A program made the position numbers and the translations under genes. 64,000 nt of DNA from the NCBI RefSeq assembly GCF_965641715.1, contig NZ_OZ282453.1; one strand, written 5' to 3'. This document shows positions 31,994 through 36,990 of the stretch, one piece after another (positions within the stretch are counted from its first letter, which is position 1; every line of letters begins with the position of its first letter). The notes beneath the pieces were generated by a model, which saw only the letters and a list, made by a program, of their open reading frames with translations, searched no databases and was not told where the DNA came from. This DNA comes from Escherichia coli. GTDB lineage: Bacteria; Pseudomonadota; Gammaproteobacteria; Enterobacterales; Enterobacteriaceae.

Positions 31994-34288
31994 ATGAGTA
32001 CCACAACACGAAAATTTAAAACCGTTATCACCGATACGGGTGCAAAAAAATTAGCTCAGGCAGCCGCGCCAGATGGTAAGCCTGTCCGCCTGACTCATAT
32101 GGCCGTGGGCGACGGTGGCGGCACGTTGCCCACACCAGACAGTAAGCAGACCCGTCTGGTGCATGAGGTGTGGCGACACACTGTTAATCGCGTCATCCTG
32201 GACGCAACACATCAGAACCGCATTATTGCGGAGCTGGTTATTCCTCCAGAAACGGGCGGATTCTGGATCCGGGAAATTGGTGTGTTTGATGAGCACGGCG
32301 ATTTAATCGCAGTAGGCAATACTGCCGAAAGTTACAAGCCAACCGTTGCCGAAGGGTCAGGACGTGCACAAACATTTCGCACCATTCTGACCGTATCCAG
32401 CACTGCCACCGTGGCGCTTACCGTGGATAACACCATGGTAATGGCCACAGTGGATTACGTGGATGACAAACTGAAAGAGCATGAACACTCACGACGTCAC
32501 CCGGACGCCTCGCTGACCGCAAAAGGCTTTGTTCAACTTAGCAGCGCCACTAACAGCACGTCTGAAACGCTTGCGGCAACGCCAAAGGCTGTTAAGGCGG
32601 CATATGACCTGGCTAATGGCAAATACACCGCACAGGACGCTACCACTGCGCGAAAAGGGATAGTTCAGCTCAGTAGCGCCACCAACAGCACGTCTGAAAC
32701 GCAGGCTGCAACGCCGAAAGCAGTAAAGGCCGCGTATGACCTTGCTAACGCAAAATATACCGCTCAGGACGCCACGACGGCACAAAAAGGGATAGTCCAG
32801 CTCAGTAGTGCCACCAACAGCACGTCTGAAACACTGGCCGCGACATCGAAAGCGGTTAAGGCGGTAATGGATGAAACGAACAAGAAAGCGCCCTTAAACA
32901 GTCCTGCGCTGACCGGAACGCCAACAACGCCAACTGCGCGACAGGGAACGAATAATACCCAAATCGCAAGCACGGCTTTCGTTATGGCTGCGATTGCCGC
33001 CCTTGTAGATTCGTCACCTGACGCACTGAATACGCTGAACGAGTTAGCGGCGGCGCTGGGAAACGACCCGAATTTTGCGACCACCATGACTAACGCGCTT
33101 GCGGGTAAGCAACCGAAAGATGCCACCCTGACGGCGCTGGCCGGGCTTGCTACTGCGGCAGACAGGTTTCCGTATTTTACGGGGAATGATGTCGCCAGCC
33201 TGGCAACCCTGACAAAAGTCGGGCGGGATATTCTTGCGAAATCGACCGTTGCTGCCGTTATCGAATACCTCGGTTTACAGGAAACGGTAAACAGGGCTGG
33301 TAACGCCGTGCAAAAAAATGGCGATACTTTGTCCGGTGGGCTTACTTTTGAAAATGACTCAATCCTTGCCTGGATTCGAAATACTGACTGGGCGAAGATT
33401 GGATTTAAAAATGATGCCGATGGTGACACTGATTCATACATGTGGTTTGAGACAGGCGACAACGGCAATGAATATTTCAAATGGAGAAGCAAACAAAGCA
33501 CCACAACAAAAGACCTGATGAATCTTAAATGGGATGCTTTGTATGTTCTTGTTAAAGCTCTTTTCAGCAGTGAAGTAAAAATATCGACAGTCAATGCACT
33601 GAGGATATTTAATTCATCTTTTGGTGCCATTTTTCGCCGTTCTGAAGAATGCCTGCATATCATCCCTACACGAGAGAATGAGGGGGAAAATGGTAATATA
33701 GGGCCACTACGTCCCTTTACGCTTAATCTCAGAACTGGCCGCATAACTATGGGGCATGGTCTGGATGTTACAGGAGATATAACAACTAACGCCTGGGTGT
33801 ATGCAAACAGGTTTGCTATTAATAGTGGCTCAACCTCATGGATTGATATGCGAAACCAGAATGTCATTTTTGGTAGAAACGCAGTATCAACAAGTTCTGC
33901 GCAGGCTTTGTTAAGACAAGACCATGCAGAACGCAAATTTTTTGTCGGTGGACTTGGTAACTACCAGTTTGGTTTTTACATGATTAATAACTCAAGGACA
34001 GCCAATGGCACCGATGGTCAGGCGTACATGGACAATAACGGTAACTGGCTTTGTGGCTCGCAAGTTATTCCTGGCAACTATGGCAATTTTGATTCCAGAT
34101 ATGTGAGAGATGTTCGCCTGGGTACGCGAGTTGTTCAATTGATGGCGCGTGGTGGTCGTTATGAAAAAGCCGGACACGCAATTACCGGATTAAGAATCAT
34201 TGGTGAAGTAGATGGCGATGATGAAGCCATCTTCAGGCCAATACAAAAATACATCAATGGCACATGGTATAACGTCGCACAGGTGTAA
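31994..34288 (+). CDS. Tail fibre protein H (as expressed in the current orientation of the invertible segment)
   Basis: 764 aa with internal tandem repeats; C-terminal ~340 aa lie inside the invertible segment and end ...INGTWYNVAQV. Confidence 0.85.
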   Translation: MSTTTRKFKTVITDTGAKKLAQAAAPDGKPVRLTHMAVGDGGGTLPTPDSKQTRLVHEVWRHTVNRVILDATHQNRIIAELVIPPETGGFWIREIGVFDEHGDLIAVGNTAESYKPTVAEGSGRAQTFRTILTVSSTATVALTVDNTMVMATVDYVDDKLKEHEHSRRHPDASLTAKGFVQLSSATNSTSETLAATPKAVKAAYDLANGKYTAQDATTARKGIVQLSSATNSTSETQAATPKAVKAAYDLANAKYTAQDATTAQKGIVQLSSATNSTSETLAATSKAVKAVMDETNKKAPLNSPALTGTPTTPTARQGTNNTQIASTAFVMAAIAALVDSSPDALNTLNELAAALGNDPNFATTMTNALAGKQPKDATLTALAGLATAADRFPYFTGNDVASLATLTKVGRDILAKSTVAAVIEYLGLQETVNRAGNAVQKNGDTLSGGLTFENDSILAWIRNTDWAKIGFKNDADGDTDSYMWFETGDNGNEYFKWRSKQSTTTKDLMNLKWDALYVLVKALFSSEVKISTVNALRIFNSSFGAIFRRSEECLHIIPTRENEGENGNIGPLRPFTLNLRTGRITMGHGLDVTGDITTNAWVYANRFAINSGSTSWIDMRNQNVIFGRNAVSTSSAQALLRQDHAERKFFVGGLGNYQFGFYMINNSRTANGTDGQAYMDNNGNWLCGSQVIPGNYGNFDSRYVRDVRLGTRVVQLMARGGRYEKAGHAITGLRIIGEVDGDDEAIFRPIQKYINGTWYNVAQV
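32524..32880 (+). repeat. Tandem ~132-bp coding repeats (~2.7 copies) within H
   Basis: Peptide unit G(F/I)VQLSSATNSTSET(L/Q)AAT(P/S)KAVKAAYDLAN(G/A)KYTAQDATTA(R/Q)K repeated in tandem. Confidence 0.7.
33258..33285. promoter_or_regulatory. Left recombination site (gix/cix-like) of the invertible segment, inside H
   Basis: TTATCGAATACCTCGGTTTACAGGAAAC is the inverted partner of the site at 36323-36348. Confidence 0.6.
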
Positions 34289-34819
34289 ATGATGCAGCAT
34301 TTAAAAAATATTAAGTCTGGAAATCCTAAAACGAAAGAACAATATCAGCTAACAAAGAATTTTGATGTTATCTGGTTATGGTCCGAAGACGATAAAAACT
34401 GGTATGAGGAAGTGAAAAACTTTCAGCCAGACACAATAAAGATTGTTTACGATGCAAATAATATTATTGTCGCCATCACTAAAGATGCCTCCACGCTTAA
34501 CCCTGAAGGTTTTAGCGTCGTTGAGGTTCCTGATATTACAGCCAACCGCCGCGCTGATGATTCAGGAAAGTGGATGTTTAAGGATGGAGCTGTAGTTAAA
34601 CGGATTTATACGGCAGACGAACAGCAACAACAAGGCGAATCACAAAAGGCCGCATTGCTTTCCGAAGCTGAATCAGTCATCCAGCCGCTGGAACGCGCTG
34701 TCAGGCTGAATATGGCAACAGACGAGGAACGCACACGACTGGAAGCATGGGAACGCTACAGTGTTCTGGTCAGCCGTGTGGATACGGCAAATCCTGAATG
34801 GCCACAAAAGCCTGAATAA
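34289..34819 (+). CDS. Tail fibre assembly chaperone G
   Basis: 176 aa [25 protein letters not shown]...; paralogue of the convergent G' gene. Confidence 0.8.
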
Positions 34820-34847
34820 AAATTAAGGCCCGCGATCGGGCCTTGTC

Positions 34848-35381
34848 TCATTCAGGTTGTTCGGGAAATGTTACTGGCAGGCTGGAGGTGTCTGTAGATT
34901 CGACTTTCTGCGCATAGAGCATCCACTCGGTTAATTTTTGTTTATTCTCGTCGGAAATGATGCCCAGCCGTAGCTGTGAGTCCCATAGCTGGGTTTTATC
35001 CCTAACGAGCTGTAGCAGGCTTTGCTTTTCATTTTCCGCCTGCTGCCTCTGCTCTTCCTCGGTATAAGTTCGCTTTACCACTACGCCATCTTTGAACATC
35101 CATTTACCAGAAATATCAGCCCGGCGATTTGCTGTAATATCAGGAACCTCAACGACGCTTGCGCCTTCTGGATTAATTGCTGAAACATCCTTTTCAATAC
35201 AAATAATAACGTTGTTGTGGTCATAGACCATTTTCAACGTATCAGGCTGAAAGTTCTTTTGTTCCTCATACCAGTTTTTCCCATCCTCTGTATAAAGCCA
35301 TTTGATGTTAAATTGTTTCGTTAGCTGGTATTGCTCTTTTGTTTTAGGGTTGCCAGCAGTAATATTTTTTAAGTGCATCAT
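34848..35381 (-). CDS. Alternative tail fibre assembly chaperone (G')
   Basis: 177 aa [24 protein letters not shown]..., paralogous to G and convergent with it. Confidence 0.75.
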
Positions 35382-36322: not shown

Positions 36323-36348
36323 TTCTTGTAAACCGAGGTTTTAGATAA
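36323..36348. promoter_or_regulatory. Right recombination site (gix/cix-like) of the invertible segment
   Basis: TTCTTGTAAACCGAGGTTTTAGATAA, close to the Mu gix / P1 cix sequence as recalled; about 35 bp upstream of the invertase gene. Confidence 0.6.
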
Positions 36349-36384
36349 TGGCCGTTTCTGACCTGCATGGCATGATTTACGCTT

Positions 36385-36990
36385 TTGGACGGGAGATTCA
36401 GCGTGCTGATTGGCTATGTAAGGGTATCAACAAATGACCAGAATACAGACCTGCAACGAAACGCTCTTGTTTGTGCAGGATGTGAACAAATATTTGAAGA
36501 TAAATTAAGCGGGACAAAGACAGACCGACCGGGATTAAAACGCGCTTTAAAGCGTCTTCAAAAAGGTGACACGCTGGTTGTCTGGAAACTGGATCGCCTC
36601 GGGCGAAGCATGAAACATCTGATTTCTCTCGTCGGGGAACTACGGGAGCGAGGGATTAATTTTCGCAGTCTGACCGACAGCATAGATACATCTTCTCCAA
36701 TGGGGCGTTTTTTCTTCCACGTGATGGGTGCCCTGGCTGAAATGGAACGTGAATTAATTGTTGAACGTACACTGGCCGGACTGGCAGCAGCGCGCGCACG
36801 GGGGCGCACAGGCGGACGTCGCCCGAAGCTGACAAAAGAACAGCATGAGCAAATAGCAAGGCTGATTAAAAACGGTCACGACAGAAAACAACTGGCAATA
36901 ATTTACGGCATTGGTACATCGACGATTTATCGTTACCACCCCGCAGGAGAATCAAGCGGAGCAATAGAGAAGAGTCAGAAAACAAAATAA
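36385..36990 (+). CDS. Serine DNA invertase (Gin/Cin/Hin/Pin family)
   Basis: LIGYVRVSTNDQNTDLQRNAL...RTGGRRPKLT... near-identical to Gin/Cin as recalled; catalytic Ser in VRVS; start is TTG 36385 or GTG 36403. Confidence 0.9.
   Translation: MDGRFSVLIGYVRVSTNDQNTDLQRNALVCAGCEQIFEDKLSGTKTDRPGLKRALKRLQKGDTLVVWKLDRLGRSMKHLISLVGELRERGINFRSLTDSIDTSSPMGRFFFHVMGALAEMERELIVERTLAGLAAARARGRTGGRRPKLTKEQHEQIARLIKNGHDRKQLAIIYGIGTSTIYRYHPAGESSGAIEKSQKTK

Follow-up and report, generated by a model that had tools for sequence, protein, structure and literature searches.

Serine invertases of the Fis- and enhancer-dependent family, such as Hin with the hix sites of the Salmonella flagellar switch and Pin with the P segment of the e14 prophage, act at 26-bp sites and have the enhancer inside the invertase gene. 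The enhancer of this family is about 65 bp long, has Fis sites at both ends, and lies approximately 100 bp from one of the crossover sites. In the transposable phage Mu, the G segment is flanked by two 26-bp sites, holds the arrangement Sv-U/U'-Sv', and has the invertase gene on the Sv' side, and the C segments of P1 and P7 are served by Cin and the cix sites. P2-like prophages of EPEC E2348/69 also combine a Hin-homologous invertase with alternative fibre C-termini (Goldberg et al. 2014, PMC4272514). Experiments found both orientations of these loci together in clonal cultures (PMC4272514). The closest phage to the locus described here is P88 (Peduoviridae, Xuanwuvirus), whose GenBank record lists a DNA invertase along with two genes each for fibres and for assembly proteins. 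The words 'invert' and 'inversion' are absent from the paper on the host range of P88 (PMC5285337), and another paper only names a 'predicted DNA invertase' (PMC6456863).

The window analysed here, a stretch of 64,000 nucleotides of E. coli DNA, includes a prophage for which an earlier note had proposed a Gin/Cin-type tail-fibre switch inside a P2-like tail module. The module was found as proposed. The genes V, W, J, I, H, G, U, T, E, FII, FI and D were all present and collinear with the annotated P88 genes, the Pfam families Phage_P2_GpU and Phage_tail_fib were matched, and the Pfam families of the neighbours at related loci fit a P2-like (Peduoviridae) tail module. A 5,007-nt query was 93.5% identical to P88 across its whole 5 kb, and the two elements share the gene order V-W-J-I-H-G, inverted G'-H', invertase, and convergent U-T-E-FII-FI. 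Their left crossover sites are identical and their invertases share 99% identity, but position 23 of the right site is G in P88 and A in the window, and the tips share 88-90% identity. The best prophage match among 5,426 complete E. coli genomes had 96.3% identity at 90% coverage, and the host DNA flanking the prophage is 99% E. coli. Compared with P2 itself, FI-U are inverted and the invertase cassette occupies the fun(Z) position. We conclude that the whole element is very probably a functional two-site host-range switch of the Gin/Cin type, that is, one run by a Fis/enhancer-dependent serine invertase, in a P88-like P2-family E. coli prophage. Table 1 lists its components.

Table 1. Components of the tail-fibre switch, in window coordinates.
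Feature	Coordinates	Strand	Remarks
Sc, constant fibre part (P2 H-type N-terminus)	31994..33270	+	Outside the invertible segment
Three tandem fibre repeats, 132 nt (44 aa) each, within Sc	32521..32916	+	Repeat search; Pfam Phage_fiber_2 x3
Left site, gixL-like	33258..33283	+	TTATCGAATACCTCGGTTTACAGGAA; central TC at 33270-33271; inside the fibre reading frame
Sv, variable C-terminus joined to Sc now	33272..34288	+	phmmer match to Mu S
U-type tail-fibre assembly chaperone	34289..34819	+	Co-oriented with Sv; Pfam Caudo_TAP 1.3e-36
U'-type tail-fibre assembly chaperone	34848..35381	-	Silent in the present orientation; Pfam Caudo_TAP 4.1e-37
Sv', alternative fibre C-terminus	35384..36334	-	Lacks its own start codon and promoter; frame open up to the right site
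Right site, gixR-like	36323..36348	-	TTATCTAAAACCTCGGTTTACAAGAA; central dinucleotide at 36335-36336
DNA invertase, small serine recombinase, 195 aa, GTG start	36403..36990	+	Pfam Resolvase 1.3e-50 and HTH_7 9.2e-14
Candidate recombinational enhancer (Fis-binding 'sis' element)	36421..36488	.	In the 5' end of the invertase gene; inferred from sequence
Terminator-like hairpin, bidirectional	36989..37014	.	Between the invertase gene and the convergent gpU gene

In the promoter/terminator scan, the hairpin that follows the invertase gene has a stem of 10 pairs and T-runs on either strand; it was also scored as an inverted repeat. The segment itself, described before as about 3.1 kb long, measures approximately 3.07 kb from central dinucleotide to central dinucleotide, and it contains the two fibre C-termini and two chaperone genes in the convergent arrangement that had been reported. 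Its identity was 91% to the G segments of Mu and D108, 94% to the P1 C segment, and 95.5% to the P7 C segment, where the interior aligned in one block. The window and Mu differ in that Sc is similar to P2 H and not to Mu S, with nucleotide similarity to Mu starting at the left site, and in that the window element is a P2-family prophage. P1 and P7 differ from it in Cin, which in P7 is 73% identical to the window invertase, and in the cix sites, which depart from the window sites at no fewer than 5 of 26 positions. In addition, P7 has a C segment of about 4 kb, in which the end next to cin is the one with the homologue of the window Sv, and the P7 record has Sc fused to the homologue of Sv', which is silent in the window. 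Hin flips a promoter, whereas the window segment flips alternative coding ends, and no nucleotide homology between its cargo and the Hin or Pin segments was seen here. The EPEC prophages, one of which has a locus with three repeats and four variants, were likened to the window by their published description (PMC4272514).

The fibre open reading frame (31994-34288, + strand) contains the left crossover site. In Sc, the Pfam searches identified the N-terminal Phage_tail_fib domain (2e-55) and the three Phage_fiber_2 repeats (1.5e-59). Relatives with shorter fibres matched the window in two overlapping blocks, 31994-32730 and 32649-33295, a pattern that fits one fewer repeat. Sv matched residues 171-503 of the Mu tail fibre protein S (PDB 5yvq; phmmer E = 6.6e-139), and its nucleotide sequence is 98.5% identical to the P7 segment annotated as 'Sv prime'. 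For the U gene, the nucleotide identities are 99.6% (P7 U') and 92.7% (Mu U). On the other strand, U' is 96.8% identical to Mu U', and Sv', which matched gp37_C (7.5e-5), is 87.6% identical to Mu Sv'. The tip expressed now corresponds to S/U of Mu, i.e., to G(+), but to Sv'/U' of the P7 record; this difference in naming means that (+) and (-) labels are not transferable between phages. Inversion had been expected to swap the fibre tip and, when it was carried out in silico, Sc joined Sv' in frame to give a fibre of 742 amino acids without a stop, followed by U'. The 764-amino acid fibre encoded in the present orientation and the flipped one have their first 433 residues in common, and each gene is followed by a Caudo_TAP gene. 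The tips are dissimilar by Pfam, one with a Gp34_trimer-type match and the other with a gp37_C-type match. Judging from this dissimilarity and from the Mu and P1 literature, the receptor or the host range would change between orientations.

Each crossover site has 24 of its 26 positions in common with Mu gix, and the central TC is the same in both; by their nucleotide sequence they are of the gix/cix type. The positions and the inverted orientation given before for sites of 26-28 bp were correct, but the left site is 26 bp and not 28 bp long. The outer half of the left site (TTATCGAATACC) is the less symmetric one. In the 64 kb window, a 26-nt pattern derived from gix, with up to 3 mismatches allowed, matched nowhere but at these two sites, and none of 100 shuffled sequences had any match. 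The 12-mer core, AAACCNNGGTTT, had two matches only in the window with at most 1 mismatch.

A serine invertase gene had been noted to adjoin the segment on the right, and its start could be corrected from the listed TTG at 36385 to a GTG at 36403, which is the most likely one since the product then begins with MLIGYVRVS, as in Gin, and has Ser at position 9. The 54-nt leader of the gene is nearly the same in Mu. The protein matched the Gin structures 4m6f and 3uj3 with E = 9e-101 and shares 81% identity with Mu Gin. In the catalytic domain the identity to Gin rises to about 99%, with one difference only in residues 1-119 (K39 versus R). A mutated catalytic serine had been considered as a sign of an inactive enzyme, but Ser9, the residue called essential in the Gin literature (PMC3575834), is intact. 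Met114 is also wild type; as the M114V mutant of Gin is Fis-independent (PMC3575834), dependence on Fis is implied. Residues Q150, R153 and L154 are invariant in an alignment of the window invertase with Gin, Cin and the P88 enzyme, and they are the equivalents of Q151, R154 and L155, which contact Fis in Hin (PMC3798978).

A search for a recombinational enhancer inside the invertase gene had been suggested, and such an element is present as judged by two comparisons. Nucleotides 1 to approximately 111 of the gene (36403 to approximately 36513) are 100% identical to Mu gin, including the enhancer region, and the candidate element aligns with the annotated enhancer in cin of P7 (nt 19-86). Two Fis-like 15-mers of the form G-N13-C, at 36424-36438 and 36473-36487, have centres separated by 49 bp and located 96 and 145 bp from the gixR centre, a layout that agrees with the one described for Hin (PMC3798978). 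Binding of Fis at this enhancer is predicted. All of the cis and trans parts of the switch are shown by the sequence to be present and intact, with both fusion frames open.

The DNA-binding domain of the invertase, in contrast to its catalytic domain, has diverged from that of Gin. Its helix-turn-helix resembles that of Hin, and the domain scored slightly better against Hin (52.5 bits) than against Gin (48.7 bits). The enzyme could be a natural chimera, with a Gin catalytic domain and a Hin-like DNA-binding domain, that might act in trans on other Din-type segments of the chromosome it resides in and might also have inverted the FI-FII-E-T-U block. On this reading the enzyme works on sites with non-identical outer half-sites. 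The tail block in question (37026-42601) is in a fixed inversion that sets P88-like phages apart from P2. Neither the 26-mer nor the core search of the window found a remnant crossover site at the borders of this block, which leaves the reading without support here, and we consider it unlikely.

For the two-site switch, we propose a mechanism in which the fibre operon would be transcribed from upstream of the segment, together with the baseplate genes V-W-J-I, and through Sc, following the Mu/P1 paradigm. As transcription would enter by way of Sc, only the tip and chaperone that face in the same direction, now Sv and U, would be produced. By analogy with the biochemistry of Gin and Hin, dimers of the invertase would bind both 26-bp sites, and host Fis attached to the enhancer in the 5' end of the invertase gene would assemble with the site-bound dimers into a synaptic tetramer. 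Ser9 would cleave both sites at the central TC, after which one half would be rotated by 180 degrees and religated. The segment of about 3.07 kb would thereby be reversed, with Sc fused in frame to Sv' and U' behind it.

Flipping of tail-fibre segments in P2-like prophages was demonstrated in E. coli cultures by sequencing and PCR (PMC4272514). As for the locus in the window, the possibility that only one orientation exists is contradicted by public data, where both are present. Two E. coli assemblies, L006 (GCA_969160985.1) and L007 (GCA_009767015.1), encode an invertase identical to that of the window, and L006 has the two window sites exactly. When L006 was flipped in silico at the central dinucleotides, it was equal to L007 at all of the first 11,486 nt, and the G and A that distinguish the sites at their position 23 had traded places, as predicted. 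This pair shows, at the level of assembled sequence, that precise inversion at these exact sites has taken place in natural isolates and that the exact sites of the window remain recombination-competent. The fibre of the window as it stands has an exact counterpart in RefSeq (WP_435658624.1, 5,159,857-bp contig), and so does the fibre predicted after flipping (WP_435658627.1, 5,159,857-bp contig); a single chromosome with two copies of the prophage could in principle encode both, instead of two assemblies that differ by the flip. Strain T28R has a P88-like prophage that is collinear with the window in its flipped form. Of the 5,426 complete E. coli genomes, 169 have the junction as in the window and 125 the flipped one at a coverage of at least 80%, and the 65 Sc-side junctions in IMG/VR were of the Sv type (43) or the Sv' type (22).

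The locus could nevertheless be a relic that has the architecture of a G/C segment but no longer flips and has its fibre permanently in the Sc-Sv form, possibly due to a silent invertase or to sites too degenerate for recombination. Two of the 26 positions in each site do differ from Mu gix, the evidence on orientation comes from public assemblies and proteins, and a simple scan of 36100-37200 found no sigma-70 consensus promoter upstream of the invertase, a weak piece of evidence that we treat as uninformative. Against a relic stand the intact invertase reading frame with all key residues, the fully open frames of the silent Sv' and U', which are unexpected after long disuse, the clean flip between L006 and L007 with identical sites and identical invertase, and the existence in RefSeq of the exact flipped fibre. 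A frozen locus is thus very unlikely; the switch is real and almost certainly active, and its flipping in the source strain itself is what we infer.

The two orientations might also have been produced by RecA-dependent homologous recombination and not by the invertase, since the crossover sites are part of a longer, 65-nt inverted repeat, an imperfect one with 77% complementarity (33254-33318 and 36288-36352). However, the longest exact stretch common to both arms is only about 13 nt, far below what efficient RecA exchange takes, and a dedicated invertase with its enhancer is encoded next to the segment. The exchange point in the L006/L007 pair was mapped to a part of the 26-bp site bounded by positions 9 and 23, an interval that spans the central TC as cleavage by a serine invertase predicts, and exchange between the 65-nt repeats was rejected on this basis as extremely improbable. 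Multi-site shufflons such as Min of p15B and that of R64 have three or more crossover sites, and R64 uses a tyrosine recombinase. Multi-site versions with more than two fibre variants occur in P2-like prophages, as in the three-repeat EPEC prophage (PMC4272514), but a shufflon of this kind has practically no chance of being the right description here, where the recombinase is a serine enzyme, the segment carries exactly two tips and two chaperones, and no third gix-like site was found in the window with either the 26-mer (up to 3 mismatches) or the core (up to 1 mismatch).

The tail-fibre switch of this prophage is of an already known kind, the DNA switch of Mu and P1, and the biology of DNA inversion gains nothing new from it; the importance of the finding lies mainly in annotation and practical work. 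Two correct assemblies of the locus may show it in opposite orientations, and contigs built from short reads are prone to end at the right crossover site. The published host-range study of P88 does not deal with inversion (PMC5285337). Those who use P88-like fibres should be aware of the silent second tip and chaperone that follow downstream. With two fibre types possible, a single annotated fibre misses half of the repertoire of the prophage, which matters for host-range prediction and for the engineering of phages and tailocins.

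The window very probably carries a Gin/Cin-type invertible tail-fibre switch, located in a P88-like prophage of the P2 family. The inverted sites that the earlier note described on both sides of the segment are present; each matches the Mu gix site at 24 of 26 positions, both share a central TC, and the pair is contained in a 65-nucleotide inverted repeat that is 77% complementary. When a gix-derived pattern allowing up to 3 mismatches was searched in the whole 64 kb, with 100 shuffles as a control, the only two matches were the two sites and none was found in any of the shuffles. 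Therefore, the sites are real, lie where the earlier note placed them and did not arise by chance. Between them are the two alternative fibre C-termini and two chaperones that had been claimed, four coding regions with two on each strand. Inversion in silico between the central dinucleotides produced an open fibre of 742 amino acids, whose first 433 residues are those of the present fibre, and the second chaperone starts three bases after it. The reading frame is thus kept in both fibre fusions, and this arrangement is what defines the Mu G and P1 C segments.

Features of the switch, the prophage and its surroundings
Feature	Coordinates	Strand	Remarks
Candidate attL/attR	9839-9858 and 45803-45822		Exact direct repeat of 20 nt, ACAAAAAACGCGCCCGAAGG, on either side of the prophage
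Integrase	9952-10974	-	
Replication gene	15047-17869		
ParM-like actin	17946-18905		Prophage cargo
Plasmid_stab_B/StbB-like protein	18775-19221		Prophage cargo; partner of the ParM-like actin
ClpX-zinc-finger protein	19285-19620		Prophage cargo
Fic/Doc toxin with Phd antitoxin	19787-20550	-	Prophage cargo
Phage_fiber_2 repeats	32521-32916		Three tandem, 132 nt (44 aa) each; constant fibre part
Left site	33258-33283		TTATCGAATACCTCGGTTTACAGGAA; inside the fibre gene (31994-34288, 764 aa)
Fibre C-terminus (Sv)	33272-34288	+	338 codons
Caudo_TAP chaperone	34289-34819	+	
Second Caudo_TAP chaperone	34848-35381	-	
Silent fibre C-terminus (Sv')	35384-36334	-	No promoter or start
Right site	36323-36348		Minus-strand reading TTATCTAAAACCTCGGTTTACAAGAA; inverted partner of the left site
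Invertase	36403-36990		195 aa, GTG start; Resolvase and HTH_7 domains; directly right of the segment
U-T-E-FII-FI tail block	37026-42601	-	
ogr	43911-44171		
N6/N4 DNA methyltransferase	44895-45701		Between ogr and candidate attR
tRNA-Glu(UUC)	53816-53891		

The neighboring gene encodes the expected serine invertase. The protein matched the sequences of the Gin crystal structures with E = 9e-101 and is 99%, 81% and 73% identical to the P88 invertase, Mu Gin and P7 Cin, respectively. Its residues 1-119 include a single difference from Gin. The C-terminal HTH has diverged from that of Gin, and its score is slightly higher with the Hin DNA-binding domain; the P88 invertase is the same mosaic. A mutated catalytic serine, which would have spoken against a working switch, was not found: Ser9, the nucleophile that Gin needs for activity, is intact, and position 114 is the wild-type Met rather than the Val of the Fis-independent M114V mutant (PMC3575834). 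Q150, R153 and L154 are the conserved counterparts of Hin Q151, R154 and L155, which contact Fis from the DNA-binding domain (PMC3798978). Inversion by Gin and Hin is reported to change the linking number by +4, with four negative supercoils lost. The gene matches Mu gin exactly over its first ~111 nucleotides, which align with the 68-bp annotated enhancer of P7 cin. A Fis-like G-N13-C 15-mer is found at each end of the aligned stretch. The two centres are separated by 49 bp and lie 96 and 145 bp away from that of the right site, which is the native spacing described for Hin (PMC3798978). These features indicate that the recombinational enhancer the earlier note proposed to look for is present by sequence inside the invertase gene, with putative Fis binding.

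Two E. coli contigs that encode the identical invertase were compared. One of them, L006 (GCA_969160985.1), has exactly the two sites of the window in the same orientation, and in the other, L007 (GCA_009767015.1), the gene order is reversed. Inverted in silico at the central dinucleotides, L006 is equal to L007 at all of the first 11,486 positions. The G/A difference at site position 23 swapped partners in L007 and the T/A difference at position 9 did not; therefore, the exchange point is between these positions, an interval that spans the central TC in agreement with the cleavage predicted for a serine invertase. That the locus is a relic locked in its present orientation is unlikely because no part is damaged, the silent reading frames remain open, and a natural flip is documented for an identical enzyme with identical sites. 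Exchange between the arms by RecA is also unlikely, since their exact identity covers only ~13 nucleotides and the exchange point maps inside the 26-bp site. A multi-site shufflon was excluded, as further sites are absent from the window.

The distribution of both arrangements is further evidence that the switch flips. The claim would have been refuted had only one orientation ever been observed, a possibility contradicted by the L006/L007 pair and by the junctions identified at a coverage of at least 80% among 5,426 complete E. coli genomes (169 in the present orientation and 125 flipped). In E. coli T28R, the P88-like prophage aligns collinearly with the window in its flipped state. The 764-amino acid fibre is RefSeq WP_435658624.1 and the exact 742-amino acid flipped fibre is WP_435658627.1, each recorded on a 5,159,857-bp contig; the most economical reading is that they stem from two assemblies differing by the inversion. 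The IMG/VR loci L013-L076 provided 65 junctions on the side of the constant fibre part (Sc), 43 with an Sv-type tip and 22 with Sv'. The Sv type of the window, with junction ...AAACAGGGC, was present in 16 loci, and another variant, ...AAACAAGGC, followed the same left site in 27; this third junction may differ from the Sv type in sequence alone, or could point to further tip cassettes. Three independent Logan short-read contigs with the identical invertase (L010, L011 and L012) share their first base, the equivalent of 36327, which directly follows the polymorphic position in the right site. Such a shared start is expected of an assembly-graph branch point if both orientations occur among the reads. 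This is no more than suggestive; the cause could instead be another, related prophage carried by these genomes. For invertible tail-fibre segments in E. coli P2-like prophages, the coexistence of both orientations within clonal cultures has been shown experimentally (PMC4272514). Fibres of T28R, L006 and L007 differ in length from that of the window, and the T28R alignment is compatible with one Phage_fiber_2 repeat fewer, which suggests that repeat copy number varies and alters fibre length.

At ~36 kb, the prophage is similar in size to P88 (35.8 kb), and the flanking host DNA shares 99% identity with the E. coli bamD-rluD-clpB region. The cargo at 17946-20550 is located between the replication and portal genes; a plasmid-type partition system inside an integrated P2-like prophage is curious. 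A similar fibre junction is found on a 48.5-kb plasmid in some E. coli strains, such as ATCC 25922. The methyltransferase gene is probably also prophage cargo, given its position. The U-T-E-FII-FI tail block is opposite in direction to H/G and D, whereas P2 has the genes from FI to D downstream of H-G, all on one strand, with fun(Z) where the window has the invertase cassette. P88 shares the inverted arrangement, and the borders of the block showed no remnant of a gix-like site. Downstream of clpB, the region at ~52000-57400 lacks long ORFs, has a strong positive GC skew and includes a tRNA-Glu(UUC), a typical spacer tRNA of rRNA operons; a ribosomal RNA operon is likely there.

The annotated locus of P88 (Peduoviridae, Xuanwuvirus) is 93.5% identical over the whole 5-kb locus, with the same gene order. 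The segment interior shares 95.5% identity with P7 C, 94% with P1 C and 91% with the Mu and D108 G segments, and the expressed tip matches the Mu tail-fibre protein S (PDB 5yvq; E = 6.6e-139). In P7, the counterparts of the expressed tip and chaperone are named "Sv prime" and U', and the P7 record joins Sc to the homologue of the silent tip. Orientation labels are thus not transferable between phages. A recent survey described DNA invertases beside the fibre genes of P2-like phages. The P88 host-range paper (PMC5285337) makes no mention of inversion, which is a gap of that paper and not of the field. The earlier reading stands as a whole, its observation confirmed and its interpretation supported. 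The system is well understood and already annotated in this phage lineage, and is not novel; the locus is of use for annotation and host-range work.
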